Assembly: GCA_050084515.1 (NCBI GenBank)
Contig: CM114271.1
Span: 22,072,001 to 22,136,000, forward strand
Origin: Blasia pusilla
Lineage: Eukaryota
DNA length: 64,000 nt
Reading direction: 5' to 3'
The notes beneath the pieces are model-generated. The model saw only the letters and a program-made list of their open reading frames with translations. It searched no databases and was not told the origin of the DNA. The translations under genes were made by a program, and so were the position numbers. Each line of letters begins with the position of its first letter. The stretch's first letter is position 1. Below are positions 4,501 through 63,900 of the stretch, piece by piece.

Positions 4501-6543
4501 TCATGCTATGCTGCCAAAGTAATTGCCAGACTTTTCTCGCTTACAGGCTTTTCCTTTTGATATCTTTTTCTGCTTCTTCAATGCTTTGATTAAATTAAAA
4601 GCTCTGGACTAGATTGATTATATGAAATCCATTATTCATTGCTGGTTTGAGGTGTTATCATGTATCCCACACACCACACACAGCTTTCTAGGTTTCCTGA
4701 CCTTTTACTCTTTACAGGTGACTATTGATGCACTTGGGCAAATGTTTAAAGAGGCCAGATGTATCATGAGTTGGCTTGGCGAATGTGCAAAGGTGAGCCC
4801 AGTAGCTCAGCTTATCTGATGGAAAACGAAAGGTTTGGGAGCCACTAGTTCTTGTTTCCTGTATTGATCCCGAGTTCTCTACACACTCAAGGAGTAAAAT
4901 ACCAAAGCAGGTGTAGGGAAATGAGTTCTCAGAAGAAAGGCGAGGCAATACTATTTTAATTGTTAAGCTTAACTGTTCAATGTTATGAAGATATCCAATG
5001 ATCTGAAAGTTTGCCAGGGGAGTTTTTGTTTCTGGGAGATCAGGGCTTCTCTGGAGAACAGGGATTCAAAACCTAGACTTAAAATGAGTGTAGATCACAA
5101 GTAGATAATAGAGTAGTTGGATTTCAAGTGGCTCACATGTTCCTGTCTGTGATTGCAGATAATCGCTATGGAGGGTGAACCAGTTCGATGGACGACTCCT
5201 TTTGGTTTGCCTGTTGTTCAACCTTATCGGAAACCAGGACGAAAAATGGTTTGTTCACTAAATTCTAAGAAGAAAGTTGATCATCCTTTAAGATGACCTG
5301 ATGTCAATAGCTCTGTGATCTCTATCTGTGCCTGAGCAGTTTTGAACAGGAGGATATTGGACCGCTGCCCTTGTTTGCCCTGGATGGAATGTAGTGATAT
5401 AGTTCTACTCAAGAATAAGCTCTTTTTTTGGCTGTGTGGGGTCTTCATAACTCAAATTTGCAGCTCACATCACATTGGACGTAATTGTATTGTGTATATA
5501 GGTTAAAACATCTCTGCAAGTTCTCGCTTTTAGAGAGGATGGGAACCAACCGGTATGCTTCTCTTGTTTCACAACTGTCCGGATTAAACTGGATTTGGTT
5601 CACCCAGCTTCTTTAGGGATGTTCTGTTGTTTTGGCTTTATTGAAGGCGATGTTTCAGATAGACTTGACATTGGGGTCTGCAGCATGTAGATGTCAATGT
5701 TCAAGACTATTGCATTTTTTCTTTATGTAGGTATCTATCTGCTTGAACCTGGGAGTTTTTTTTTTGGTGTGGAAGTTATGATGATGGTTTGGTTTCATGG
5801 TAGTCATGTTTTGATACTGACGTTCCACTTACGAGGATGATGATGTATGCAGGTGGCAGTTGCGAGACAAAGAAGTGCATTTCCCCCGAATTTTGTCCAT
5901 TCACTGGATGGGTCTCACATGATGATGACCGCCATTGCTTGCAAAAAGGCAGGCCTGAATTTTGCAGGTTGTTGAATTAATTTGAATGACTTGAGATAAT
6001 CCATTCTTTGGTGGTAGAAATTTGTGTTTAGACCAGATTGCTGAAGATCTTCACATTATATTATGAATGTTGTCGACGGTGTAGATGTTTGAGATATTTT
6101 GTCGTGAACCTTCGTATTCTTCATTCATATTCTGGTTGGTTTCTTTGTCGGGTTGATGGTTGCAGGAGTCCATGACTCGTTTTGGACCCATGCGGGAACT
6201 GTTGACCGGATGAATCACATACTTAGAATGAAATTTGTGCAATTGTACAGTCAACCAATTTTGGAAAACGTAAGTTTGATTCCTTGGATTGGTCGTAGAT
6301 GCCAATTGATTTATGAAACTCACAAATGAAGTAAGTCGAAGTGAAAGCTAAATGAGAGGAAGTGCGCTGTTGGACTCGTGTTAGCGTAACCAAGCTCCAA
6401 GCCGACATACTTACGGACGTTTGGGTGTGCAGTTACTAAACGACTTTAAGCAGCAGTTTCCTCATCTGGAGTTCCCAGATGTACCTGTACGAGGTGATCT
6501 AGACCTTCAAGAGGTCATGAGGGCTCCTTATTTTTTCAACTGA
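1556..6543 (+). CDS. RPOT: Nuclear-encoded phage-type (T3/T7-like) organellar RNA polymerase, 13 3' exons; 5' exons lie upstream of the window
   Basis: GT-AG exons in continuous frame: 1556-1669, 2055-2186, 2486-2902, 3182-3232, 3524-3594, 4082-4166, 4369-4518, 4718-4792, 5159-5248, 5502-5552, 5853-5967, 6166-6269, 6433-6543. Motifs [20 protein letters not shown] (A), [14 protein letters not shown] (B), [14 protein letters not shown] (C), C-terminal YFFN*. Confidence 0.98.
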
Positions 6544-8634
6544 GGGTCGTCGCTCACTTTGCCCCCTTAAATCCCACATTCCATTCATGATAAGGATCCT
6601 AGTGTTGATAGCCGGCGAATTTTGGTTATGGCAGAGGCAATTCATAGCTAGTTCTACACTTGGTAGTCCTAGTCCCTTAAAAGGCTGTATTAGTTGGCAA
6701 GGCTCCCGGGCTCCAATATTTGGAGATGGAGTAATGCCGGTGACGTAGAGAGCGAAAGAGGAGAAGAGCTCTCGAGGAAAATCAAAGGTTGGTGTAGACG
6801 AGAGTCAAAGTTTTTTTACCTCAGTAATACCTGTACCCGGAGAGCACCCTCGGTCTGTTGTACATATATTCTAAATCTACGGATTGAGACTTCGTCTGGT
6901 CTTCTCCCCAGACCTAGCGCTTGTCCTGGACGCTGATGGTATGGGACCTCGGATTGTGATTCATTCTTCTCTCCTATCGTCTGCTGCTGATGAATGCCCT
7001 CCTGGATCTAGTCATGGTATTGCATATCTAGCATGTCCTGTACTGTTGGTCCGCTCTTCGATGCCGTCGCCGTTCGCTTCGGATTCCTTGTGTTCATACA
7101 GGTCCCCGTGCTCCTGGACGTTTTGGTGAAGACCTTGGCGGGTATCTCGTCTGCGCTGGCTTCCAAACCACTTTTTTTCTCCTGCGGTTGCTTTCGTAAG
7201 GTGGCATCGTGGGGAGCTGGTTGATGACAAGTAAGGACTACATGCATGTGTTTACGACAGAGCTCCGGTTTCTTCGTCTCCAAGGCACTCGTCGTGCACG
7301 CTACCTACATGTAGACCACGTTAGCCTATACCGCAGGGACCGTGGTTTGTTCTTCGGATTCAATCCGCGAAGTGGGATTATCCACGAAAGGGGAGATTAC
7401 CTCGAGCACAAACTGCCTCGGGCAGAGCCAGACCAGTTTCGCCTCTTGCCACCGCAGGGTACACCAGAACCACGTCACTCACTCACTCGCACTAGCACCT
7501 GTCGAAGTTTAATCCCTCTTGCGCTGGCGTGGAGATTTTTAGAACACATGTGGACAGGGAGGAGTGTCATGGAGACGGGCGTGAAACGCCACCTATGAAA
7601 CGGCCGGTCACGATCTTTTCTCCAGAGATGCGTCGCGCTCTACCTTCTCAAACTGTAACCCTCCTCCGACCTGTTCCAGGCTGGGGACACTGTCCGTTCA
7701 CGATGGCTGGCTGGTCACGAACTTTTCCCAATATCTCCTGTTGTGTCTACACACGCCAAAGAGTAATAGAAAACCTCCAGAACTTTTACCTATATATGCT
7801 TTCTGTCCTAAGGTGTACCCTAAACGAAGGCATACTCCCGGGAATTAGATGATCTTCACCACCGTATGGCTGGTCGCAAGAATCCTCTTCCAAACGATCA
7901 TCCAATCAGGGTCCGGGGAGTTTTTTCGTGACAACTGGTACATTTCCGGTCTCTACAAAAACGAGGGGCAATTTTCGAAGTTTTCGTCATTCCAATCGGC
8001 TAAGTAGACACGAATACAATGGACATCCTCCCTGAACCCTCGGTTTTTGGCCGGTATGTGACGAACTGAATCGGAAATTCTCAAATTCTTCTGGCCAGCT
8101 CAACACGTAACCCCGGTTCTCCTCGGACATTGCATCCAATTATGTGTACATAACAATTATTTTACAGAAATGCAAAAGTTTATTGTACGGATTTGTTGAT
8201 ATTGTGTACTAGTAAGTTTTCGTTATTAAAATGTTCAAGTGAAACAAGAGAAGAGTCCTCAAAAGACAGGTGTCAACCTCGCCAGGAGGGATTTTGTAAA
8301 CCCATACTTTCTCAATAATAAAGATTCTAGGGGATAGAATACTTGCCGAGTTTCAAGATCCTAACCCTATGATTCCTCACTTATTACTAGCCCTTGGGCT
8401 TCATGGAAGAGCTCTTCTTCGAATCCCTACCTAGAAAAAGCGGACTTGATAAAACATGCGTAACGAAAAACCCATCTGGAATATAGAAAAGGGAGGACTC
8501 GAAGAGTCGAGTACATGAAGGCCACAACCCGCCCGGGAAAAGTAAAGGAGGCATCCCCCTATCGGCTAAACTCACCAATGACAAAGACAATATCAACAAC
8601 ACCTAGAGAGACGTGACTACCACTAAGTGGGCCT

Positions 8635-46800: not shown

Positions 46801-48280
46801 GATCCGCTATAGAATGTGCCATGGTTGCTGCAGGTGTTGTGTTGCTGGATAACCGAGGAGAGATCTTAGAGTTGGTGAGTCAAGGAGGTAGATTTTTTTC
46901 TCCACAACGTGTCTTGTTAGATTCAGGAGCGCAACCTTAGCCGCATTAGGCATCGCCATCATATAGCCTTATGACTTGATTGAGGGGCATGTCCATGCAA
47001 AGAACATCTCCTCGCGTGACACTTGTAGGGAGAGGAGTGTTATGGTAGCCGCATCATTCCGTGGAGGAGAGGTATCATTGTGGGGCTCAAGTGAGTAGCT
47101 CCAACGCTTGGTAGATGAGCACGTGCAGATGGCGTGGAGTCACGCGTTTGCACCAGAGCGTGACAAAGGTGCAAACACGTGAATCCTGGCTACCTCGGAG
47201 AGGAACCCGAGGTAGCCGGGGAGTGCTACTATGACCCCTTTGGACACCACCGTACCCTGATCCTGTGGCGCATCCTAGAGGAGGGTATTTGCGTGTTGGA
47301 TCTCTTAAGAAGTATCAGCATTGGCTTAGCTGCTGTTTTGCAGGGACAAGTGCGTGTGCAAGAGGACTTGTATGTTGAGATTGATGATGTTGCGAGGCGC
47401 ATTTCACTTCACCATGTGGTGCAATTACGCCTCTGATTTCCCAAATTTTTGTGTGCGTCCGTCGTCTAGGGATTCCAGAGTTTCCTACCAAGGGACATTT
47501 CATTGTTGGGGGCGCAGGACTTGGAGCGGGCAGGGACCATAGATTTGGTCATTGCTAGTTGGTGGAGCCCAATGCCGATGAGTGAGAGCGAGCGATGGGA
47601 TTCTCCACAAGAGTGATGGCAGTACCATCAATATCAAAGGCATCACGACATCATATCTTGGGTCAGGCAAAGGACTTGAACTACTTCACATGGATTTTCA
47701 GCTTAAGAGTAGCTCAACAACATTGTTTGAGGAACTGTTGCGTTGGTGAGCCCCATGCCTATTGAGATATTCGAGGCATTGGTTGGAGGTGAGACTCGAG
47801 GAGATCGACACACTAGGAGTGATTGGTAGAGACACCCTTGAACTTGGGATGTTTTGAAGGTACGTCGGGAGATTATAGCTATAGCATCAAGCGTGGTTCC
47901 GGATACTGCACGTGGAGAAGATGAGATGAGAAGTTGCAATTGGTTGTAGGAGAGCATTCAAGTTCTACTGTCTGAGATAGAGTTGCACCATAGCAATCAT
48001 CAACACCCGCGCTGGAGAGTTCTACCGTAGTCACGATGGAGACTTGGGAGCCAGATATGGGCCTTAAGTTGACAAAAGGAGAGCAGCGGCGGATACATCA
48101 GTTCCTTAGGAGTTTTAGGATTTTCTTTGCATTTAGCATGCATGATCTGGGTATGCTAAAGGGTATAGGGATCCGCATTGAGTTCTTAAGCGACACGCCG
48201 ATCTTTCGACGACCCTACAGGTATAGTGACATGGAGAGGGCTTTGATTGAGAGTAGGAGCCAGGACTTGGTTGGAGCAGT
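40842..48280 (+). mobile_element. Gypsy-DNMT element D (5' part: LTR, leader, gag, protease, DNMT remnant, start of RT), interrupted at 48281
   Basis: LTR about 40842-41390 ending TTTACA. Gag about 44180-46200. Protease VLLDSGAQ about 46910. DNMT motifs at 47280-47620. RT start PIFRRPYRYSDMER about 48200. Colinear with elements at 50022 and 60986. Confidence 0.88.
44402..45395. mobile_element. Solo LTR (994 bp) inserted in the gag of element D
   Basis: TGTTGCG...CATGACA ends; perfect 5-bp TSD GATAT (44397-44401, 45396-45400). Removing it restores gag as seen uninterrupted at about 63500. Confidence 0.9.
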
Positions 48281-50021
48281 TGTTGTGCACATACAGATCG
48301 CTACACAACATACATTGCTTTCACCAAACATACACACAAACACGCATGATCCCAAGCTAACTCATGGCATCCAAACAATAAGACAAGAAGTACTAAAATA
48401 TCTCAAATCAATCGAGTCGATCTCTAATCAACATCTCACACCAAGCTCTCCATGGTATGCACTCTCTCTCTCATGTCAAACCAAACCCTTTCTCCTAATG
48501 AGAGGTTTGGGTTACATACACAAGGCAAGGAGGACCATAGCTAAAAAGTTACCACGAATTTCAAATTTAGCTCCTTCCTCACGCAGTGGCTATGGCAACT
48601 CCACAAAAATGATCATAATTTCTTGCTCCCATGTTCAAATTGTGCACTATTTCTTCCACAACGTGCATAGCTTCCCGATCTACAATAGCGTTAAATCAAC
48701 TTCTTCATACAACCTTCCAAAAAAAAAAACTGACAGGGATTGTCGTGCAACCCTTCAATCTGCACTCCCACAAAAAATTCAGCAAGGCTTCCGCGCTGAT
48801 TTCTCCCAACAAAAATTGCAAACCTATAAACACAACAACCAACAAGCTACAAGGTACTCTTGAGAGCACCAACATGGGGAAAATAGCCCCCATACTCAAT
48901 TTGTAACAAAATTTTGGCAACGCTTCCGCGTGTCACCCTCTTGTACGAAAAATCAGCAAAGGAATCAACAAAATTGAGCGGCTCTTGCTCGGGTGAGCAG
49001 TGCCATGAACCGCTGAACAGGGAATATGATCCCCAACCTGCAACAAGAGCGAGTGACCAGCAAGCTCCCCCATTGAAAATCTCTTTGTAAATCAAGTAGA
49101 TCTCTCATCAACATCTCACACCAAGCTCTCCATGGTATGCACTCTCTCTCATGTCAAACCAAACCCACTTTCCTAATGAGAGGCTTAGGTTACACACAAA
49201 AGGCAAGGAGGACCATAGCTTTGCCGCCTCATGCCAAGAGGTTCAACAAAGTGAGAATGAGGTCTAAAGCTCTCTCTTGGAGGTATACTCCCTTCCCTCT
49301 CTCAAGTTCTCTCCTCAGTAACCTATGCTTGCAGGTCACCTCCTTGGCTCTTGACCTGTTATAGCGGGTCAAGGGCCACTTCCCAAACAAGAAAGTCAAC
49401 TATACTCCAAATAGAAACTTACCCGAAATAGTGAGTTTCTCTATATGGCTCCAAATGAGCAGAAACAAAGGAAAAACCTTCTCTATGAGGTTACCCATGG
49501 CCTCAGGAGGTCATCCTCAACCTCCTGAGGGTTGTCTTGTAGTATCTTCGAAGGCGCTCTACTAGATCTTGCCGATCTATCCTAAAAGTTGTGACAAGTG
49601 TCCTACGCATACACATCGCTACACAACATACATCGCTGTCACCAAACATACACTCAAACACACACGATCCCATGCTAACTCATGGCATCCAAACAACGCG
49701 ACAAGAAGTCCCCCTAGATGGTGGTTAGGTCCCTCTAATTCCAGATAGCCATCTATCCCTACCTACAATGACATACATCTCTCAGACGCTAAGATAAAAA
49801 AAGTCGGGTGCCCAAGTGGCCCTATCCTTAGTCGCCTTCTTGTCACAGACAGAAGTCAAAATCTAGAACTACCTGCTCTATGTACATCTGGGACACATCC
49901 ATCATCCCTCAGGAACCCTAGTGAGAGATGGCGTCAAACATGCCATATGCAATCCTCTCGAACATCCATCACAGACTAGCATAGTGACTGCACCACGGGC
50001 CAAACCACACAACATACATCT
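48281..50021 (-). mobile_element. Gypsy-DNMT family element C, 3' end (PHD finger, PPT, B-A-...-B' repeats)
   Basis: PHD CMLCGLARGAVTMLVCDGCSRGLHMACLTPSLTRVPEG*WMCPRC at 50018-49884; PPT at 49717-49704; B 49703-49599; A 49596-49086; B' 48385-48281. Confidence 0.88.
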
Positions 50022-50389
50022 TGTCATGACCATACGGATTATGTCGTAGAGTATAGTGTGCTAGTAGAGGCCATACCTTATGTAGGGCCGTAGTGTCTAG
50101 GTAGAGATGCAGGTTCATACATAGGGTTGGGGGTTACTCCGTTGAGGGTGAATTTTCCAGTAGGGCCTGCTCTTAGGTTGGAGGATATAGTGTGGAGTGC
50201 ACTCAAAGAACAGTTAGTTCTTTGAGTTGAGCTTGTTGCGTTGGGAGTTAGCCTTGGTAGTGAGTAGAGCTCTTGGCTATGGTGGTTCCCGCAAGCTTCG
50301 ACCTCGATTCTCCCATCGTGGAGTGGGTTTGGCTCGATTGTATGTGATTCTATACGTATTTTATAACAATAGGTCTTTCATGGGTTTCA
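50022..50389 (+). repeat. A repeat (5' LTR-like), 368 bp
   Basis: TG...CA; direct repeat of 59243-59610 with about 17 mismatches counted by eye (about 95% identity). Confidence 0.95.
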
Positions 50390-53300
50390 CTCAAAGAAGT
50401 GGAATAGATCGATAGTACCTTCGATCGTGGATCAGTAGGATCTGGTTAGGGTTGATTGTGTACTCAGTAGTGGATGTTCATGGCTTTTGGCCTATGTTGG
50501 AGGTGTGAATCTAGTGCATGGTTGTTTGGGAAAGAATCGCCTTGCTAAGAGCTTTCCAACGCGCTTTAGATCCGCGGATTTTGTCAAGGGAGTTGGAAGT
50601 TATTAAGGATTGAAGATTCTGGTTCGTGTTCGACGGTTTTATGATTTAGAGAGCTTGGAGTGCGGAAGCTCTGTTGAAGTTCATCCAGATCGGGTGAGAG
50701 GTTCCTATTGCTACGTGTATTGTGATCTCATGTGAAGTTATCTGCTTGAGTGTGTGGAGCGTTGTGGATTTCTGTGTGCATGAATCTGGGCGGAAGCGAT
50801 GTTGGATTTGCAATTCTAGAGGTGTATGGACATCAAGTTTGTCTCATATTTAGCTTGGAGTATAGAGCTCGGTTGTAGCTGATTTTTTTATGGAGAGATA
50901 ACTATGGCGGCCAATTAAATTCTGGTTGAAACAGATTCAATTTTGGTTGAGGATTTATGGAGAAATTGTTGATCGAATTTTGCGGACTAGCTCAAGGTGG
51001 ACAACAGATCGGAGGGTCTGGTTGGTTTGTGACTCGTCCGTTGTTAGAGACGCCTATCTCGTTGGGAGCGCCCTGGTTGGGCATCTCTCCATAGCAAAGC
51101 ATGGCGAATGGGGCATGTCTCGAGCATCTCTTGTCGTTTGAGGCTTCGAGGCACCTCGTGGTAGCTTGGGACGAGTGGGCGTGAGAGGTGGAGTAAGGAG
51201 TAAGGAGCAAGGAGCAAGCAATCAAGCTTGCTTGCTTGGGCGTGAGGCAATTTTTGCAGGATTTGTGAGTTGAGTGTTGCATAACTGGTCACCCATCTTT
51301 GGGCTATTCTGCTTGGAAGACGCTTAACGGCTGAGTTCTTAACTATGTCAGTGTACACACTGGTGTAGCTCATTTGGTGTTGTTCAGAGATGTGTTAGGC
51401 GCTTTATGCATCTCACGTTTTTGGTTGATGTACCTCTAGCGCATAGTACGGTGTAGCCTCTCCATGCAGGTGATATTTTCACGTGCTGCGAGTGCGACTA
51501 GCACGTCATCGACCAGCGGCAGAGTAGCTATTGCGTTAGAATTTTGTGGTGGAATCTGTGGATTCAGAGGGTGCCACATTTGGTGGACTGTGTTACCTTG
51601 ATTTCCATTTGCGATCGGAGGGTTGTCGTTGGACTTCTTGTGTTCGGATCCCCTCCATCGTTGCTTCTTGCTTGCGCGCCCATTGTTAGGATTGACCTTG
51701 ATTTCCAAAGTAGTTTTACTCGTGTGTGCTACCGGTAGTGAGGCTGGAGTGATGACCAGTAGACCGTGGGAGGCTTCTTGTGGTGATGACATGTTAGGTT
51801 GCCCATAGCTAGTAGAGCTAGAATAGTACAGCGACATCAACATCACTTGGTTACTTAGTGGTGGTGATTTGGTGGTGGTGTGGCATCGACGTTGGTCATC
51901 ACGGAGCTATTTGGTGGTCTGGTTGGGGACCGTGGTACGGGCAGTGGTGGTTTTACATGGAGTGGATTGAGGTATCGGCTACCTTTTCCACTTCCGACGG
52001 TTGATGAAGAGGAGGACGAGGGTGTTCCAAACACCGAGTCTTTTACCTTGTTATCGAGTGTTGCAGCTCCATTGATTTGGGACATGGACGGGATATATGG
52101 GACCATGAAGGGCCCACCACGATACTCGAGTGCAGTGGGCACCATTGAGTTGGAGGACTTCATTCAATAGTTTGATACGTGGTGTGATATGCTAATGTTG
52201 CGGAACACCACGTTGTTTACACCCTTCTTGGCTTGGAAGGGGTTGTTCCAGCACTTGGAGGGACCACCCATGGACAATTACCATGAGTTAAGGAGGGACC
52301 ATGTTGGTGAGATTGAGGCGTGGAGACAATATTGGTCTCCAGGCTATGTGTCTATCACCCATGGTGGTATTGGTAGTAGTGCTCCTACTGTGTCAGCCAA
52401 TTTGACCTTGAGTAGTACAAGTACGAGCCGGAGTGGAGGTACCACTGGGGGTACTAGTGCTCCACCATCGTTCAGCCGGGTTGCAGAGTTCTTCAAGAGG
52501 TTGACGAAGAACTATCAGGGAGTGAAGATAGAGAAGTTGAGGAATCTTCAAGAATTTGAGCGAAAGACAGGTGAGAGACTTCGTGAGGCATACACTCATA
52601 TGACGCTTGATTTCAGTTACCTAGGGTGTGACTAAGGCTCAGGTAGTCTAGTTTTGGTATGGGATCTTGGACAAAGAGTTGCGCCGTAGGGTATGTGATG
52701 CTACTCTTATGAGTGATGATTCACCCACATTGGCCAATGTGTTTGCTCTATCTGAGAAGATTGAGCTTAACATGGTGGAGGAGAGAGTGGTGACATCCGC
52801 ATTCACTAGGGATACAACTACTACTTCTCGTGTTCAGCAGTCCACCTCACAGTCTCGTAGTGGTGATGGTGGTAGTAGTAGTGGGAGTCGTGGGGGGTAC
52901 ACACGACCTCAGTTAGGTCCTAGAGGGACACTTGCGCAGAGACCATTGCCTTCATTTGCTGCCCCGCAGCAAGGACAATCATGTTGGACATGTGGAGGTG
53001 ATCATGTCAGGAGGTTTTGTCTCCAAGAGGATGGGAGACGGACTTTGGAGGATGGGCCTCAGTCAGCCCCAACTCAGTGTGACCAAGTCATCCTCGAGAG
53101 CGTTGCTTTGATCTTCATCCAGAGTTGAGATCAGGCCGCGGACGTGGTGGAGTAGCTCCGAGAGGCCGAGGTGGTAGAGGTGGTAGGGATGGTAGAGGTG
53201 GACGAGCGGTTGGAGAGCCTATGGTGGCTATCCCTACCACTACGACAGTAGTCACTATGGTGCCGAGATTGAGCTTGATTGGAGCAGAGGTTGGCTACTA

Positions 53301-54714
53301 TGGTCGGTATCCAAAGATAGAGTAGGTTCCGGAGCGGGGCTTCCACCTCTTATGGAGGGAATGATCTCTCTTATATGGCAAGTGCAAAGACAAAGTTGAG
53401 GCATCGATTGCGATTACGAGAGGAGCCACTCGAGCGTTAGAGCCACGTGGTGCTACTGTGGAGTTGGACCCACAGAGGGGTGAGGCTGGGAGGCAGGCTA
53501 GGCTTCCCCAATCATTCTTGTTGTCTAGGGTGCTTAGGACTCCATCCATGGCTCCTACGCAGTCTATTGAGCCTACAGTGGGGACTAAGGTATCTACATC
53601 GCGTTTAGTAGACATAGATGCAGCATCCAGTGTAGTATTGCAGATGGCAACTTCAGTGTTGGGATCCCCATTATTTTCAGCCACTGAGTTGATGGCCTTA
53701 GGAGTTGACTTAGCTCGTGTATTTCAGCTAGCAGCCACGTTGTGTGAACGTGGGAGTATTACTTCTACACGTGCTGAGGTGGATGAGGGTGTTGCGGTGG
53801 AGAAACCCTCTATGTTAGGTGTAGCATTGAGTACCAGTGCTACTTGGCAGGCAACAGCGGCGAAGATGGATGCATTACCAGCCCGGCCAGCCATTGATTG
53901 TGAGAGGCTTACACTTGGTGTATGTATGTTGGACAATTGGAGTGGGTTATTCCGATTGGTGAGTCCTACAAGACAGGTGTATAGACCAGATAGAGTCTTG
54001 TTAGACTCTGGTGCCCAACCTTTGATGTTGGGAAAGGCAGCATGTATTGGTTTGGGTATTCGGAGGTCAAAGCTTGAGCCTTGCCCAATCCAGATTCAGA
54101 CATCACTTGGAGGAGCCAATGATAGGTCTGATTTCATGACATGGGAGAAGTTTTCTGTACAATTGAGACCATATCATGCGAGTGATAGCTCCTGGTTGGG
54201 AGTACCTGCAGTGGTCACATCAGCCGAGTCGCATGATGTACTAGTTGGAGGAGCAGTATTGTACTCGATGGGTTTTCAGATGGACTACTGAACTGAGACA
54301 ACGTCTTATAGACCTGGTTGGCAGTTTGGGGATGGACGTATGAGCCAGGTTCCTCTGAGATTTATTTATGGGGCTCGACCAGGAGGGTCTTCCCCAATGG
54401 TGTTAGCATCTGTGGCTGGTTTTTGTGGAGTAGTCACTTGGCCAGGAGACTTTTTGGAGGGCAACCTTTCTGCTATGGATTCTCCTATGCATGAGGAGGT
54501 AGAGGAGGTCCCTAGTTTTGCAGCAGTGGTATCCTCATCGTTGGATGTGCCACTTTGGAGTTCAGGCGGTGCCCTACGACAGGAGGTTGATTGCCTAGTG
54601 GAGGAGGCTTGGTGTGAGGCTGTTATACCTCACGAGGAAGAGGAGGCTCCGGCAGACTCCTACTTCTGGTCCTGTTGGGTTATACTACACCCATTGTATG
54701 GCAGTATCAGCTAG

Positions 54715-55570
54715 AGGGCATTTGTGTGTTAGATCTCTTTGATGGGATTAGCATTGGTTTGGCTGCAGTGTTGCAGGCCGCTATTCCTTTGCGGAGATAC
54801 GTGTATGTGGAGCGAGATGAGACGGCCCAGAGAGTCTCATCCCGACATATTGGTCAGTTGATGCGGAGATATCTTGAGTTGTTGCCGCCATCAGCTATTC
54901 GTGGGTATCAGCGTGCTTTGCCGTCACACATTGCATTGTCGTAACACCCGTAACATCTCCCAAAACAATCGAGACCTAGGTCTCGATTGTTTTGGGAGAT
55001 GTTACGGGTGTTACGACATCTTCAGGTTCATCAGGCACGTGCTCCAGCTTATATTCGAGAGAATGTTCCATTGTTGGGTGACACTCGGACCCGGATGATG
55101 GCGAGTGTTCATGAGGTTGGATTGGACCAGCCGTGTTGTTGGATGCAGTGCGAGTTGGCTCACGTGCACATCGTCCACGCTTGTGGTGGACAAACTTGTT
55201 GCCTAGGGAGGTTCTACGTTGAGCATATGATGCAGTGCAATGGGATCCTTGGCTTACAGTGGATAGTATCTTGGATACTGGGCGACTTTCTTAGGTGGTG
55301 AGGGTTATTGATCAGTCACCCATCATAGTGGTGAACTGTGTGGGCCAGCCTAGGATGGCACTACCCACATTTGTGAGTTTTCCCTCGTCACATGCCTAGA
55401 GGGAAGATGGTCCCGGGCTTGTATGGGATTCTCATGTGCGACAGTTGGTGGAGCCTAACGCTGATGAGAGAGAGCGTGCAATGGGATTTGCTACTCGTGT
55501 GACAACGATTGCTTCCATTTCTGAGGCTTCACGACGTCATGTGTTGGGTCAGGCCATGGACCTGATTTTT
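54715..55570 (+). pseudogene. Retrotransposon-encoded DNMT3-like C5 cytosine methyltransferase domain (disrupted)
   Basis: ICVLDLFDGISIG (motif I), YVYVERD (II), RSRLFWEMLRVL..ENVP (V-VI), PAVLLDAVRVGSRAHRPRLWWTNLLP (VII-VIII), ERERAMGF...RRHVLGQAM (IX-X). Motif IV is missing; frameshifts and stops present. Confidence 0.9.
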
Positions 55571-55869
55571 TTACCTCGATTTTGAGTCTTGGTATGGCCG
55601 AGCAGCGTCGACTTCGGACTATGTCTATGGGTCTTCCACCCCTTGTGATGAGCTCGATGGCTACCGGGCCGGTAGAGACATCGGCTGGGGTCGAGGAGAA
55701 CAGTATTTTGCATCCTTGGAGTAAATGGGATGTTATGGCTGGGCATGTGGAGTTGGTTGCTCATGCTGGTGGAGGAGTTACTTGCTCAGATGATGGTGTA
55801 GCTAAGTGTGTACCATCTTGTAAGGGAGTTGCATAGCAGCCAATGGTGTCTTCCTCTCCCTCTAGTGTG

Positions 55870-58800
55870 CTAGTGGAGGAGACTTGGGAGCCATTACTTG
55901 GGCCCAAGCTTACGGAAGGTGAGAAACGACGCTTGACATAGTTCCTACGTGCTTATAGCAGTTGTTTTGCCTTTAGCATGAAGGAGTTGGGTGCTTTGGT
56001 TGGACCCGATATACGGATTGATTTGGCTAGTGATACACCAATCTTTTGTCGTCCCTACCGATATAGTGATATGGAGAGGGACCTGATTCAGAGTAGGACG
56101 TTGGACCTTTTAGAGGCAGGATTAGTGGAGTTGTTGCATGGAGAGTATGCATCAGCCACTGTCATGCCTGCTAAAAAGGATGTGCATGGCAACTACACAG
56201 ATAGGCGGATGTGTGGAGATTACCGTCCTATCAATCCGTAGACCAAGGTCGATAGGTATGCCATGCCTACACTTGAGGAGATCATTGATGTGGTGGGACC
56301 GGCAAAGATTTTCAGTACTTTGGATCTTCGAGCAGGATACCATCAGTTGCCGATTCGAGAGAGTGACAAGGCCAAGACAACATTTTGGGGTGTCAACTCT
56401 CATGGCAAGGATTGTTTGTACCAGTGGAAATTCTTACCCTTTGGGTTGAAGAATGCACCTGCCGAGTTTGAGAGAGTGATGGACAGGATCCTAGCAGGGT
56501 TGGATTTGGTTCGGTGTTACATTGATGATATCTTGGTGTTTAGTAACACAGTGGAGGAGCATCAGATACATTTGCAAATTGTGTTTGAGCGGTTGAAAGC
56601 TCATGGTCTATGTTTGCCATTCAGGAAAGTATAAGTTCTTCCTTAAGGATATTGAGTACTCGGGTCATGTGATCTATCCAGATGGTTTGGGAGTTCAGCA
56701 AGCAAAGGTGGAGGCTATTGCACTTATTCCTTGTCCGGTAGATGTGAGTAGAGTTGGGGCATTCATAGGATTGACGAACTACTATCGGAGGTATGTGAAG
56801 GGATTTAGTGCTATGGCAAAGCCTTTGAACCAATTGTTGAAATCAGATCAGGAGTGGTACTGGGAAGATGATCAGGAGAGAGCTTTTGTGGAGCTCAAGG
56901 CCCACTTGGTGGCGGCGCCTATCTTGAGGAGACCTATCAGAGGGCGCCCATTTCAATTACACACTGGTTGGAGTAGGTTGGGGCTTGGAGCGGTGTCGAC
57001 ACAACATGATGATGAGCACATGGAGTTTGTCGTGGCCTATGCAAGTCGTTCGAATAATGCAGCGGAGTCCCGCTATAGTTCATATGAGGGAGAGTGCTTG
57101 GCAATAGTGTGGGTTGTGGCACACTTTAGGTGTTACTTGTTTGGCTCATAGTTTACCCTTGTTATTGATCACCAGCCGCTCAAGTGGTTGATGGAGTCTG
57201 ACAAGCTTACAGGGAAGCTTGCACGGTGGGCTCTTATCTTACAGGAGTATAATTTCCAAGTGGTACATAGACGTGGAGTTGCCAACCTTGATGCTGATAG
57301 GTTGAGTAGGAACCCATATACTAGCCAAGAGGATGCAACTCGGGCTAGATGCCATGGCGAGGGTGATGAGGAGATTGTGCCAGGTTGGCATGCATCTGCC
57401 TTTTTATGTTGGTTACGGGTGGACTCTAGTATGGAGGACCACATGACATCTTACTCTAGTGAGAGGGTATATGGCCAGCCTTCAGATGCTAAGGTTGGAT
57501 ATGATATTCATGATGATGCGTTGGTGTTGGAGTTCCTACGGACTTGTAGGGTGCCAGACATAGTGGGTGCCAAGGAGCGAGACCGTGTTCTTCAACGTGC
57601 TAAGAGGTATCGATTGGAGGGAACACATATTCTCCGTGTGTGGGAGGATGGTAGAGTACGAGTAGTGCCACATTTGGCTCAAAGAGAGCACATTGTGCGA
57701 CATGCCCATGAGGAGTTGGGACATTTTGGGGTAAAGCGTATATATAGCTTACTCCTTGGTCAATATTGGTGGCGTGGCATGCATACTGAGGTGCAGCAAT
57801 TGGTGTCACATTGTATGGTTTGTGACCGGGTGAGGGCATCACTCAATGCCCCTTCACCACAGTTACACCCCTTGCCTATTATGGGGTTGGGTTACCGTTG
57901 GAGTGTGGACTTTGCGGGACCGTTACCGTAGTCGTTGATTGTACGACATCATCGATATGTGTTGGTGATGGGGGAGCACTTCTTCAAGTGGATTGAGTTG
58001 GTGGCATTACCTGACAAGGCAAGTGAGGGAACGGCGTATGCCTTAGAGTTCTTTCTTGATAGAGTGCTTAGTCATTTTGGTGCACTAGCTGAAGTGCTGA
58101 CCGACCAAGGTACAGAGTTTCAAGGTGAGTTTCAGGTCTTGTGTGACAAGGCGTTGATTGATCATCGGACCACGTCTCGAGATCATCCAGAGGCGGATGG
58201 TTTGGCTGAGCGTGTGTTTCAAACGATAAAGAGGGCATTGCGCATGTATGGCCTACATAAGGGGCATCTTGGAGATAAAGAATATTCAGTTGCCATGGTT
58301 AGGCATAGGATATAGGTTCAGTCGCCAAGCATCCTTGGCTTCCTTCTCACCTTATTTTTTGTTATACGGCCGAAATCCAGATTTTCTTGCGGCAATTCGT
58401 GAGGAGTCTACAAAGGTGGTGAACCTTGACGATCCACAGATATGGATGAGAGTGTATTCTCAGCGGGCAGACCTCTTTCGGAGAGTTATGCCAACAACCT
58501 TTGAGAATCTTGCCATTGCTCAACACAAGGATACGTTTCTGTATGCAACCATTCGGGGTGGAGGTTATCGACCATCGATTTTTAGGTTCCATGTGGGGGA
58601 CTATGTCTATTTGCAGCAGATTGCACCAACAATGTTGGATGTGACTGCAAGCCGCACTATTTTACGAGTGCGCGAGGTGTTAGCTTCTTGAGTTCTCATG
58701 TTGAAGGGTCGTGATGGAGTTGTTTAGAAGGACCGTGTGCGTAATTGTGCGCCATGTCATCTTCCAAATATGGATGGTAATGTTGACCCAAGCTTAGCCA

Positions 58801-58970
58801 TGATACGTGCTAGCTTGAGGTGCATGTTGTGTGGGTCTGTTGGTAACGCAGCCCGTATGTTGGTGTGTGATCGGTGTTCTAGGGGTTGACACATGATATG
58901 TTTGACTCCACGTATGGATGTTGTTCCTACTGGAAGGTGGATTTGTCCTCGATGTACTAAGGAGAGGTAG
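55870..58970 (+). pseudogene. Gypsy RT-RNaseH-integrase-PHD coding region, with stops and frameshifts
   Basis: ORF pieces 55978-56241, 56263-56634, 56603-57151, 57188-57931, 57935-58315, 58248-58691 in Gypsy domain order; PHD at 58821-58955. Confidence 0.95.
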
Positions 58971-59136
58971 ATGACATGATCTTTGCATGATATGGATTAC
59001 AGATGTGCGACTTACGATGGGGCAACCCAGCACCCGACCTTCTGATTCGTGCACCCACGAAGGTGTATAGCATGTAGTAGATGTATAGGGCTACCTGGGA
59101 GTTAGAGGGACCTAACCGCCAATTAGGGGGGCGAGT

Positions 59137-59715
59137 TGTGATACACTTGTGTTTGTGGATGCTCTCGTCTATGTTATGTATGAATGCGAGTATGGTATGT
59201 CAGCGATGTCTTTTGTATGACGATGTGGATTCGCACGACAGTTGTCATGACCATACGGATTATGTCGTAGAGTATAGTGTGCTAGTAGAGGCCATACCTT
59301 ATGTAGGGCCGTAGTGTCTAGGTAGAGACGCGCGTTCATACATAGGGTTGGGGGTTACTCCGTTGAGGGTGACTTTTCCAATAGGGCCCGCTCTTAGGTT
59401 GGAGGATATAGTATGGAGTAAACTCAAAGAACAATTAGTTCTTTGAGTTGAGCTTGTTGCGTTGGGAGTTAGCCTTGGTAGTGAGTAGAGCTCTTGGCTA
59501 TGGTGGTTCCCGCAAGCGTCGACCTGGATTCTCCCATCGTGGAGTGGGTTTGGCTCGATTGTATGTGATTCTATACGTATTTTATGATAGTAGATCTTTC
59601 ACGGGTTTCAGTTGTCGTACACTTGTGTATGTGGATGCTCTCGTCTATGTTATGTATGTATGTGAGTATGGTATGTCAGCGATGTAGTTGTATGACGATG
59701 TGGATTCGCACGACA
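59137..59715 (+). repeat. 3' terminal B-A-B' repeat block after the PPT
   Basis: PPT AGGGGGG at 59125-59131; B1 59137-59240; GT; A2 59243-59610; GT; B2 59613-59715; each unit TG...CA. Confidence 0.95.
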
Positions 59716-60985
59716 ATCGTAAGCGTGCACGAGTTACTGCTAAGCTTGGATTAACTATACCGTTAATGTTAGGAAGGTGACATGGCGCACACTTACGCAC
59801 ATGGTCCTTCCAAACCATACCATTGCGTCCACACTATATCCAATAAGGGAACACTAGATGGAAAAATCTCATGCACTCTTAAGATGGTGCGTCCTTCAAT
59901 CACATCCAACATTATGGGTGCTGTCTGTTGCAAGTAGACATAGTCTCCCTCTGAGTGAAACCTCTGGATAGGTTGATAGCCACCTCCCCAAAAAGTCGCA
60001 TACATTAACATATCCCGATGTTGCGCAATCACCAAATTCTCAAACACCATGGGCATCACTCTCCAAAACAACTCAGCCTTCTGAGAACATGCTCGCATCC
60101 ATACATCAGGATCATCAAGGTTTAACACCTCACCAATATTTCGACGAATGACCACAGGTAAATCTGGCTCTCAGCCATAAAGTAGCAAGTACGGTGAGAA
60201 AGACGCTAAGGATGCTTGCTTGCTGAATCTGTATCCCATCGCCAAACACGGCAACTGGAGGTCCCAATCTCCTAGGTGATCTCTCTGCAAGCCATACTTA
60301 CGCAATCCTCTCTTCATTGTTTGCACAACCCTCTTTGCTAGTCCATCCGCCTCAAGATGATCTTGCAAAGTGGTGTGGTGGTCCATCAATGCCTAATCAC
60401 AAAAGGTCTGAAACTCCCCGCGAAACTCCGTACCTTGGTTTGTCAACACCTCAGTTGGTGCGCCGTAATGACTCAACACTTGATCTAGGAAGGCAAACGC
60501 TACTCCCTTACTCGCTTTTTCATCCAATGCAAGCAACTCTATCCACTTCCAGAAGTGCTCGACCATCACCAACACATAACGACTATGGAGCTCCGTCAAA
60601 GGTAAAGGTTCTGCAAAATCCAAACTCCATCTATAACCTAAATCCATGATCAAAATTGGATGCAACTGTGGAGTCGGAGCATTGAATGATGCCCGGACCC
60701 AATCACACACCATGCACCTAGCAACAAACTGTTGAACGTCAGTCTGCATGCCTCGCTACCAATATTGTATCTAAAGCAAGTTGTACGTCCGCTTCACTCC
60801 AAAATGACAAAAATCCTCGTGACACACCAAACTTGCTGTCTGTGAAGGATTAGGCACTACATCTACTCTATCATCCTCCAAAACCTCCAACATATGCATC
60901 CCCTCCCACCAGAACCGTTTGGCTCGTTGTAGGATCAGATCCCGCTCTCTAGCACCCACTATCCTCTCAACGCTGCCTATATGCA
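59716..60985 (-). mobile_element. Element C integrase segment; continues into 50021 downward, interrupted at 60986 by element E
   Basis: Minus-strand ORFs CHFGVKRTY, CMVCD, WSLDFAEP, TNQGTEF, ADGLAKR, GDYVYLQQ are homologous to 57700-58800. Confidence 0.92.
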
Positions 60986-63900
60986 TGTCACGTCTTTTAG
61001 GATAGATCGGTGGGATCTAGTAAAATGCCTTTGTGAGTAGTGGAAGACATGCTCAGAAGGCCGAGGATGACTTGCTGAGCCCTGGGAAACCTGAGAGAGC
61101 AAGTTTCCCCTTCGTTGCGGCTGATTTGGAGCCATATTGAGGAACTTACTATTTTAGGTAAGTACCATTTTGAGTATATGATCGACTTTATATTTTTGGT
61201 AAGTGGCCCTTGACCTCCTACATCAGGTCAAGAGCCAAGGAGGTGACTTGGGAGCATAGGTTACCATGGAGAGAGCTTGGGAGAGGGGAGGGGTATATCT
61301 CAAGGAGAGAGAGCTTGACAACTCATTCTTTCTTTTTTTAACCTCTTGGCATGAGGCGGCGGAGCTATGGTCTTGCTTGCCTTTTGTGTGTAACCCAAGC
61401 CTCCCATTAGGAGAGTGGCTTTGGTTTGACATTGAGATACACATGTGAGAACTATAGTGTTGTGAGAAAGATTTGATCGTATTTTACAAGGAGAGAATGA
61501 GAAAGTGAGAGACCTTCATGGGGGAGCTCGCTGGTCACTCACTGGTTTTGAAGGTTGGGGATTGTATTCCCCATTCACTGGTTCATGGGAGTGCTTACTG
61601 GAGCAAGAGCCGTTTACTTGTGATGTTTCCTTTGCCGATTTTTCGTGTGAAAGAGTGGCACGCGGAAGCGTTGCCCAATTTTTGATAGGTATTGAGTATG
61701 GGGGAAGGTTGCCCCATGCTGGTACTCTCGGGAGAACCATATACCTTGCTGATTTGTGTTCTTACATGTCTTAGATTTTCGTTGGGAGAAATCAACGCGG
61801 AAGCACTGCCGAATTATGTGTAGGAGAAAGAGACATTTGGCTTTACGACAGTCCTTGTCAGTTTTTACTGGAATGTTCAATTCCAAATATTTTTTGATGC
61901 TCTTGTAGATCAAAAAGCTATGCATGTTGTGCAACAAACGGTACATAATTTGGAGTTGTAAGCAAAATTTTATGATCAATCTTGCAAAACTTCCATTGCT
62001 AGGCAATTTTTAGGGTTAAATTGTTCAAACCCTAAACCAGCCGCCACACCGGAGGCGGCCGTCGTTGTCATAGTCACCATCAATGGTCAATGGTCAATCA
62101 TCACTGTTGACGGTCAATTGTTACCATCAACGGTCTGTCGTCACCATCAACGATCAACCGTGACCGTCAACAGTCCACCGTCCAGCGTTGTTGTCCCCTA
62201 GCGCTGCTCAAAGCTGCATTCAGACGTTGTCCACCCTTTGGTTGCCATTGCCGCCATTACAAAGTGGAGGGTCTTCCACGACCACCGTTGATTCTATGAC
62301 TTGCGCCGCCTCTACCTACTTTGGTTTGGCCGCCACCGTCATCGCAATTTGGTCATCAACTAGTGATGGCCGGTGACCTCGGATTATGGTGTTTGAGTTT
62401 TCATTTCATGTTGCTATGTTGGGATTGGTAGCCGCTCGACGATAATCGAGTACCGTGCGGTGACGCCCGTAGCCGCAACGCGCCGCCAATTTCCGCGCCA
62501 TGCCGCATGTGGCCGCACCGCACCGTCTCGATCGCGGAGCTGCTCCTTCACTAAGGTGCAGAGCATGTGAATTGCTGATTCAGGAGGGTATGCCACCAAG
62601 TGCCGTGCCCTTTGTAGCCGTTCCGTGCTGCACCGCACCACTGGACCTGCACCGCACATCAAGGAGGTTTGAGCAGCGTCAGTACGAGAGGAGTAAACTT
62701 GCTGATTGGAGGAGTTGTCTTCACAACCGAGTTGGGGTGGAGATTTGCAGTTGATGAGGAGCGATATCGACATTATTGTCAAGTTACCCATTATGGTCTC
62801 TTAACTTGCAAGTGTGAGGGATTTTTGGATATTGGGAAGTTATTTGGGATATTGGGTTTCGTGTTGATCCTAGTAGCATCGATGACGTATGGTGTTTAGG
62901 GGACATAGACGTGCGTGGGATGTCCAGAGTTGAGGATGGTTTATCGATGAGACGATAGATCGGTTGATTTTCCGCACCACGCTACTTATTGCCGCACAAC
63001 ATACGTCTCAATGAGAGAGTGTAGATTGAGTGTCACATGTTTAGTTTGATTACTCACGAGATTGAGAGTGATCGTGTGAGAGGGGCACGAGGGCCATCAC
63101 GGCCTCCTTTCGGGATTTTGAGAGCCAAGGTAGTGGACCTGAGAGTAGCTATGGAGGGTTTACCCGGAGTGGTGCGAGGTTTCGAGGGTCTCCACGTGAG
63201 AGACCACTTGGATCTCCTTCTGTGTTGTCTTCTGACAAGAGTGAGCGTGTAGAGGAGTGTGTTAGTGATCCACCGTACACTTTGAGTGGTCCTACCAGTT
63301 GGGCATACGAGATGGAGGACCACGCAGATTTTTGGATGTTGTAGGCACTATAGAGCTACACGACTTGATTGTGGAGTTTAGGAGTTGGTGTGACTTACAA
63401 CGGGCTAGGAACTCTAGCGAGTTCAACCCCGTTTAGAGCATGGAACGGTATGTTCTAGAATTTAGAGGGGGCGCCCATGGACGATTACCATGAGTTCTCC
63501 CACAGATATGCCCATGAGGTTGAGGCATGGCAACTCTACTATGACCCACAATATGTGTCATAGACGGATCGGTTTCCAGATGAGGAGGAGGAGTCAGGAG
63601 AGGCTACTTCCTCTTCCACTAGTGATGTTTTAGGAGGGGTCAGTCGCACAAGAGCAGTTGGACCATCTAGTTGGGTTCGTCCCAAGTTCAACCGCGTGGT
63701 TCAGTTCCTTGTTGAGTTGAGGGCGAGCTACTAGAGGGTACGGACGGAGAAGTTACAGAGCATCCACGACTTCTAGAGGCGTGCGGGTAAGAGTTTGCGT
63801 GAGGTTTACACTCGCTTGCGCCGGTTGATCAACGTCACTCAAGGGTGACGGAGGCTTAGGCTATCCAATCATGGTACGGGATGTTGGACTGTGTGGACAC

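Follow-up and report, generated by a model that had tools for sequence, protein, structure and literature searches.

Self-priming has been shown for the retrotransposon Tf1 and inferred for Tj1 and other elements from fungi to vertebrates, as set out in the accessible part of PMC4600332. In plants, Neumann et al. 2019 predicted self-priming for 12% of the elements surveyed, which were members of the lineages Tcn1 and TAR (PMC6317226, in the portion available). De Mendoza et al. 2018 described KnitGypsy-Dnmt3 of Klebsormidium nitens as combining gypsy domains with a DIRS-type repeat structure (PMC5890265, in excerpt), and a 2026 bioRxiv preprint, also available in excerpt, refers to streptophyte Gypsy-DNMT3. 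The primer of DIRS-1 is reported as unknown in the available part of PMC7192593. Here we describe a retrotransposon from Blasia pusilla, located in a stretch of 64,000 nt (assembly GCA_050084515.1, contig CM114271.1, positions 22,072,001 to 22,136,000 of the forward strand) that is called the window throughout, and whose first position is position 1. Judged from its sequence, the element is of the streptophyte Gypsy-DNMT3 (KnitGypsy-Dnmt3) type, and its own RNA is, as in Tf1, the probable primer of minus-strand DNA synthesis. Both self-priming and the repeat architecture of the element (A-coding-B-A-B, where A and B are repeats) were already known; self-priming in the Gypsy-DNMT3 lineage would be new.

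Complementarity between the 5′ repeat and the adjoining sequence

The features of the element that bear on priming are given below with their window positions; the long terminal repeat is abbreviated LTR and the primer binding site PBS.

50022-59715, + strand: the retrotransposon under study, 9.7 kb, decayed, Ty3/gypsy-type.
50022-50389, + strand: A1, the 5′ terminal repeat, LTR-like (U3-R-U5), TG...CA, 368 nt.
50184-50190, + strand: TATA-like motif GATATAG, 31 nt (T50186 to G50217) 5′ of the putative primer start.
50201-50211, + strand: left arm of a palindrome, ACTCAAAGAAC, with letters identical to the PBS; a third copy, overlooked by the initial annotation.
50217-50227, + strand: right arm of the palindrome and putative self-primer, GTTCTTTGAGT, the predicted first 11 nt of the RNA.
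50306-50325, + strand: conserved U5 block GATTCTCCCATCGTGGAGTG, also present in the related loci L010 and L011 (L011 7358-7377; see below).
50389-50399, + strand: putative PBS, ACTCAAAGAA(G), with C in place of the G in other copies.
59243-59610, + strand: A2, the second copy of A, with a copy of the palindrome at 59422-59448.

The sequence adjoining the 5′ repeat, ACTCAAAGAA (50389-50398), is the exact reverse complement, over 10 nt, of TTCTTTGAGT (50218-50227) within the repeat. Both words, and GATATAG at 50184-50190, lie where the initial annotation had placed them. Because A1 ends at 50389, the A of its terminal CA is the first base of the match. This pair is the sole reverse-complement match of at least 7 nt between 50386-50430 and A1. 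When A1 was shuffled 5000 times by mononucleotides, and a match was counted if the word started at most 8 nt from the repeat end, matches of at least 10 nt arose in 23 shuffles and of at least 11 nt in 7. The G at 50399, which the initial annotation did not mention, is private to the window copy; since this position is C in other copies, the match of the family is 11 nt (GTTCTTTGAGT with ACTCAAAGAAC). The LTR segment ends 3′ at T50227, whose partner is the final base of the repeat (A50389); extension would therefore copy U5 and then R.

Together, the segments at 50201-50211 and 50217-50227 make up a palindrome of 11 bp whose loop is 5 nt long, and A2 retains the palindrome (59422-59432 and 59438-59448). 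A1 and A2 are 95.4% identical over 369 aligned nt, and none of their 17 differences falls in the palindrome arms; one is in the loop, at 50213.

Public data, consisting of raw reads from three RNA-seq runs and a set of DNA contigs, which all bore the species label of the best-matching DNA set, were aligned to 49950-50650 at 90% likeness, placing 396, 488 and 378 reads from the respective RNA runs. Position 50399 was C in all RNA reads covering it (12/12, 5/5 and 11/11), and in the DNA contigs C accounted for 549 of the 803 units of depth. No tRNA-type PBS was found after A1. The 10 nt that follow the repeat contain no TGG; the nearest one, at 50400-50402, is 10 nt downstream and is not conserved in the RNA reads, reading TAG (G50401 to A) in 10/12, 5/5 and 4/11 reads of the three runs, in keeping with the absence of a TGG-type tRNA site noted in the initial annotation. 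No tRNA genes were found in the 64-kb window.

Covariation of the putative primer and its binding site in related elements

A 259-residue piece of the element's integrase was compared to known proteins. The nearest were from liverworts (73% and 66% identity), with farther relatives in Klebsormidium nitens (33-45%) and Closterium (37%); many of these relatives contain a PHD finger, and some contain PF00145. A profile built from them identified eight loci in a prokaryote genome collection of metagenome-assembled genomes (MAGs), which are eukaryote-like retroelement contigs binned into MAGs. One 7.8-Mb MAG had 114 gypsy-profile matches, which points to heavy eukaryotic contamination of the bin.

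One of the loci, L011 (9285 nt), is identical at its two ends over 127 nt and was therefore taken as a collapsed ring of one unit. It is 57% identical to the window element in integrase and is intact except for one stop. One frame encodes a weak Asp_protease_2 match (E 0.00078, under the Pfam cut-off) and a DNA methylase (PF00145, E 6.8e-12), and the next frame encodes reverse transcriptase (RT), RNase H, integrase and a PHD finger. Repeat A of L011 (7057-7415) aligns block-wise with that of the window, and its end was set by alignment with L010 (86% identical), in which the border between A2 and the terminal copy of repeat B is visible.

In L011 a GTATAG motif at 7210 lies 29 nt before the putative primer, and a 12-bp palindrome, CTTGACTTGACA-TCTT-TGTCAAGTCAAG, is found at 7228-7255. 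The 13 nt that begin at the last base of repeat A, ACTTGACAAAGAT (7415-7427), are exactly complementary to ATCTTTGTCAAGT (7239-7251), which comprises the loop and right-arm bases. Relative to the PBS of the window, that of L011 has a 3-nt insertion and an altered end, and the LTR partner mirrors both changes. Spacing is nearly kept, at 31 nt in the window and 29 nt in L011 from TATA-like motif to primer, and at 173 and 177 nt, respectively, from primer to repeat end. Between L010 and L011, 51 of 364 aligned columns of repeat A differ, none of them in 7203-7256, which contains the TATA-like motif, the palindrome and the primer.

For L011, 0 of 5000 shuffles reached 12 nt. A chance event in a decayed copy is a very improbable origin of the match: that of the window copy is just 10 nt and A/T-rich, as such an event might leave, but its frequency among shuffles (23/5000) is low, no shuffle gave at least 12 nt in L011, and the match is kept and lengthened in other copies.

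A farther, G+C-rich relative, L012, contains GTTCTTATAGAA (4711-4722, 94 nt into A), which pairs over 12 nt with TTCTATAAGAAC (5061-5072). This is the sole non-palindromic inverted match of at least 12 nt in the 2.9 kb searched, and its letters resemble those of the window pair. Putative primer and PBS therefore co-vary in the three families compared: GTTCTTTGAGT/ACTCAAAGAAC in the window, ATCTTTGTCAAGT/ACTTGACAAAGAT in L011 and GTTCTTATAGAA/TTCTATAAGAAC in L012. A host tRNA primer would not yield this pattern, because the match is kept at the same place with letters changed on both sides. What the sequences and reads show directly is the complementarity with its position and polarity, the absence of any conserved TGG, sense transcription and the compensatory change. 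The PBS-adjacent geometry, together with compensatory change in L011 and L012, supports the self-priming proposed in the initial annotation, which we consider the probable reading.

The same comparison bears on the idea that a host RNA, either a tRNA half or a small RNA similar to GTTCTTTGAGT, binds the PBS and that the copies in the LTR are by-products. Half-tRNA primers are known in plant copia lineages, according to the available portion of PMC6317226. A conserved host RNA would keep the PBS constant, however, and the PBS differs in the three families (ACTCAAAGAAC, ACTTGACAAAGAT and TTCTATAAGAAC), each matching its own LTR; moreover, the 3′ end of such a primer would read ...GAGT and not CCA. 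This origin of the primer is improbable, and a host tRNA in particular is an unlikely primer because there is no conserved TGG and the PBS of each family matches its own LTR.

Searches for additional copies gave little further material. A metagenome scan with an 18-mer from A identified nine loci, all of which were rejected as chance matches of 18-32 nt. The pattern GACAGCTGTCAC identified one extra place, also rejected, as a chance match in a bacterial-looking contig. No relatives were found in viral contigs, and no further repeat copies were found in the genomes behind L011, L012 and L013. The gypsy profile gave many matches over five such genomes, and none of those examined was of the Gypsy-DNMT3-type lineage with a usable 5′ end.

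Transcription of the 5′ region

Over A, first mates on the - strand prevail (75-205 vs 0-15), which in the usual stranded library corresponds to + strand (sense) RNA. Most reads over A come from the 3′ context, and the loose ends, present in large sets at 50021 and 50022, carry the sequence of the end of repeat B1, the short repeat that precedes A2. Between 50290 and 50400, read depth drops from roughly 80 to 18. Most transcripts seem to end inside A2, since no read-through into repeat B2 occurs among the listed loose ends. Reads spanning the border of A1 and the PBS have a depth of 7-18. In the bin 50214-50237 depth gains 8, 3 and 11 in the three runs, near the depth of 9, 5 and 11 past the PBS; this gain is consistent with an RNA start in the bin, but it is weak and within noise. 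Depths near the PBS are unreliable and underestimates, because the differences of these reads from the window copy approach the likeness cut-off.

Some RNA reads in the three runs (4, 10 and 5, respectively) join 50339 back to 50051, a step of 289 back with 4 nt common at the joint, and this joint was not found in the DNA contigs. A template switch may be behind it, or a copy in which the repeat is duplicated.

Proposed priming and folding of the leader RNA

In the mechanism that we propose, the start of the RNA, its cleavage and its extension are predicted steps. Transcription would begin near 50217, about 30 nt 3′ of the TATA-like motif and within either the loop or the right arm of the palindrome. 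With its first 11 nt (GUUCUUUGAGU) the RNA would fold back on the 11 nt from the last base of A1 (ACUCAAAGAAC). A cut by the element's RNase H behind this duplex would free a 3′ end, whose extension through U5 and then R would yield about 173 nt of strong-stop product. Levin's work on Tf1 reportedly describes a match of about 11 nt and a cut by RNase H. The left arm of the palindrome would be transcribed only in the 3′ copy of A, because it lies between the TATA-like motif and the predicted start, and thus in U3. There it may lock the second primer sequence in a hairpin, which would leave the 5′ copy alone free for the PBS.

The outcome of folding flips with the start site, so the position of the RNA start decides the matter. 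For an RNA begun at the primer, the primer:PBS helix closes R-U5 with a probability of about 1 in L011 and L012, and of 0.74-1.0 in the shortest context of the window. The palindrome hairpin, if transcribed, folds with a probability of 0.7-1.0. The spacing of 29-31 nt between TATA-like motif and primer favours a predicted RNA start at the primer. The initial annotation had expected a start near 50218; the 31-nt spacing in the window fits this position, but the RNA reads resolved no start there.

Several observations weigh against self-priming as proposed. In longer contexts of the window the probability of the primer:PBS helix drops to 0.12-0.45, partly because the private G50399 favours a local hairpin. 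If the RNA begins at 50183 or upstream of the palindrome, the local hairpin wins and the primer:PBS probability is 0.0. At -12.3 kcal/mol, the primer:PBS duplex itself is short and rich in A and U. The three RNA runs gave no resolvable RNA start near 50217; a pile of read starts is listed at one place only, 50183 (21 molecules), and in run X21 alone of the three. Reads of the 5′ context differ from the window copy at at least 10 places. Among the relatives, the case of L012 is the weaker one, its repeat end being unverified, and no primer/PBS pair was found in the three related elements of the window described below (elements B1, B2 and C), whose repeat ends could not be fixed. Element B1 has no inverted match of at least 10 nt, and its best duplex has -8.3 kcal/mol. 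A 14-nt pair in element B2 was rejected as primer and PBS, since it lies within a repetitive stretch.

The pile at 50183 is relevant to a variant in which the RNA begins upstream of the palindrome and has the entire hairpin at its 5′ end. The right arm would prime at the PBS once the hairpin had been opened or processed, the hairpin being a switch that times priming, in a form of self-priming other than that of Tf1. The 21 read starts in run X21 are consistent with this variant, as are the conservation of the palindrome between families with changed letters and the L011 match, which spans the loop and only 8 of the 12 right-arm bases. Yet the pile is missing in the other two runs, the hairpin wholly out-competes the PBS pairing in folding, and in both families the spacing (29-31 nt) is as expected if the RNA starts at the primer. 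We consider such a switch unlikely.

The leader can also pair in another way. For the PBS region, the second-best partner is the U5 block GATTCTYCC...GTGGAGTG, at -10.1 kcal/mol for the window and -14.4 kcal/mol for L011; the two may form an alternative structure, presumably similar to the U5-IR stem of Tf1. Such pairing of a second conserved block points to a structured leader, and covariation demonstrates pairing and not priming, so the pairing of the 5′ end with the sequence past the repeat might serve packaging, dimerisation or translation control while another primer is used. This, too, is unlikely: in both families the pairing is exactly at the place expected of a PBS, from the last base of the repeat, no other candidate PBS was seen there, and the nearest TGG is not conserved.

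Coding regions and genomic setting

The remaining features of the element, for which self-priming is the reading that we prefer, are as follows.

52171-53125, + strand: gag-like open frames, decayed, with tblastn matches to neighbouring related elements.
53980-54288, + strand: aspartic protease region with a DSGA motif, from translation, homologous to L011 1020-1847.
54618-55600, + strand: probable decayed cytosine-5 DNA methylase remnant between protease and RT, from homology to the L011 PF00145 domain.
55930-57250, + strand: RT and RNase H, frameshifted (Pfam RVT_1, E 2.5e-24; RT_RNaseH_2, E 1.3e-27).
57680-58690, + strand: DDE integrase with H2C2 zinc finger and rve core (Integrase_H2C2, E 2.2e-15; rve, E 2.5e-6, at 28.1 bits under the Pfam cut-off of 32.6).
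58821-58958, + strand: PHD finger at the integrase C-terminus, with one internal stop codon (PF00628, E 2.6e-11).
59125-59134, + strand: polypurine tract AGGGGGGCGA, directly 5′ of repeat B1.
59135-59240, + strand: repeat B1, a short repeat ending ...CGACA, 92.5% identical to repeat B2.
59611-59715, + strand: repeat B2, the terminal copy of B, from its identity to repeat B1; the element ends ...CGACA.
50018-50021, no strand: left flank ATCT; the right flank, ATCG, is at 59716-59719.

The element has the gypsy order of protease, RT, RNase H and integrase (PR-RT-RH-IN), with a DDE integrase. A Pfam search of the gag-like frames (52171-53125) gave no match. The segment 54618-54941 is 49% identical to L011 2214-2426, which is inside the PF00145 match of L011 (E 6.8e-12), and because of this homology the window element is considered to carry a decayed methylase. 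A Pfam search of the methylase stretch of the window copy gave no match, and comparison of the remnant to the PDB gave weak matches to DNMT3A/DRM motif I (E 0.25-0.9, 17 of the 19 chains listed). A second stretch of this kind occurs in the window at 47248-47505. In L015, another of the related loci, a methylase-like stretch (5830-6018) is located between RNase H and the integrase core, which suggests that its place in Pol varies among lineages. The PHD finger is in the place of a chromodomain in two elements of the window (58821-58958, and 49872-50021 on the - strand, E 4.9e-12) and is also found in L011 and many relatives.

The flanks ATCT and ATCG are a probable 4-bp target duplication with one mismatch. 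The element is inserted in the PHD-coding sequence of element C (- strand), whose frame halts at 50021 and resumes at 59716. It is one of several nested related elements in 40963-63998. Element C (- strand) interrupts the RT of element B1 (+ strand, from about 40963) near 48270-48400 and is itself cut twice, in the PHD region by the studied element and in the integrase near 60986 by element B2 (+ strand), which runs off the window. RNA reads of the opposite sense cover the flank 49950-50021, and their loose ends at 50018 and 50019 continue into uninterrupted sequence; these opposite-sense reads suggest that copies of the C-type element are also transcribed.

Repeat arrangement and integration

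The 3′ part of the element reads polypurine tract, repeat B1, GT, A2, GT, repeat B2, and the integrated unit is A...B-A-B with TG...CA ends, a layout absent from the initial annotation. Element C has the same order, tract-B-A-B, from 49709 down to 48270 (- strand), as does L010 (2300-2884), and the tract also precedes B in element C, L010, L011 and L015. The B/A and A/B junctions read CA-GT-TG, and the internal B/A junction of the window element is a near-palindrome, GACA-GT-TGTC. In L010, L011, L012 and L015 the B/A junction is GACAGCTGTC.

Two other readings were rejected. The extra repeat B2 is not an accidental insertion of a two-LTR circle, since element C and L010 have the same order, and a likeness of the leader past the PBS to a diverged B was not significant (66 of 500 shuffles in the window and 497 of 500 in L011).

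With its PBS after A1 and its tract before repeat B1, the element is laid out as an ordinary LTR element would be if B+A made up the LTR. Formally, A...B-A-B equals a two-LTR circle opened at the B/A junction. Reverse transcription from this PBS and tract would give B-A...B-A, while the integrated copies are A...B-A-B, which gave rise to the idea of a circle-junction substrate. The lineage might then join a hairpin-masked self-primer to a DDE integrase that uses as its normal substrate a B/A site resembling a circle junction, having converged on a DIRS-like logic; we put this forward as a speculative and rather unlikely combination.

Comparison with known systems

To our knowledge, self-priming has been shown experimentally only in elements of fission yeast and is elsewhere inferred from sequence; for the studied element, the case rests on compensatory change between families. 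Within the literature searched, of which parts of the texts were available, self-priming has not yet been proposed for the Gypsy-DNMT3 lineage, whose members have their own DNA methylase, a PHD finger and DIRS-like repeats. The available parts of PMC5890265 and of the 2026 preprint contain no mention of a primer binding site. If self-priming is true of the studied element, it would offer a first handle on the replication of Gypsy-DNMT3 elements and a testable role for the conserved palindrome at the U3-R border, and self-priming in green plants would be wider than the Tcn1 and TAR lineages.

In Tf1 and Tf2 of Schizosaccharomyces pombe, in Tj1 and in the Tf1/sushi group, the PBS adjoining the 5′ LTR complements a stretch within the LTR that is taken as the 5′ end of the RNA, and there is no tRNA site, as described in the accessible part of PMC4600332; the same arrangement is seen here. 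Unlike in Tf1/sushi elements, the integrase C-terminus of the studied element bears a PHD finger in place of a chromodomain, and because of this replacement the element lacks one of the characters that define the Tf1/sushi clade. It further differs from Tf1 in that a conserved palindrome supplies both its putative primer, as the right arm, and a repeat of the PBS, as the left arm, and in that its repeats are arranged as A-coding-B-A-B and not as two plain LTRs.

Among plant LTR elements, the Tcn1 chromoviruses of moss and clubmoss and the TAR elements of Ty1/copia are predicted to be self-priming from similar complementarity (PMC6317226, in the portion available), and are of different lineages from the studied element. 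The available text of that source has no liverworts, Klebsormidium or PHD, and its supplements, large element tables aside, have no Marchantia or Klebsormidium. KnitGypsy-Dnmt3 of Klebsormidium nitens, according to excerpts of PMC5890265, shares with the studied element its gypsy domains and the A-coding-B-A-B arrangement and has a DNA methylase in Pol, for which the window copy has a probable remnant; in contrast to it, the window copy is decayed and has its nearest protein relatives in liverworts.

No phage-integrase (tyrosine recombinase) domain was found in the frames scanned, which sets the element apart from the DIRS order. In DIRS, Ngaro and PAT elements the repeats are split (A1...B1-A2-B2), and the termini, as they read when joined, recur at the internal junction (PMC7192593, in the part available). 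This is likewise the case in the studied element, which differs from them in its DDE integrase, its TG...CA ends, its probable short target duplication, the tract before repeat B1 and the putative PBS after A1.

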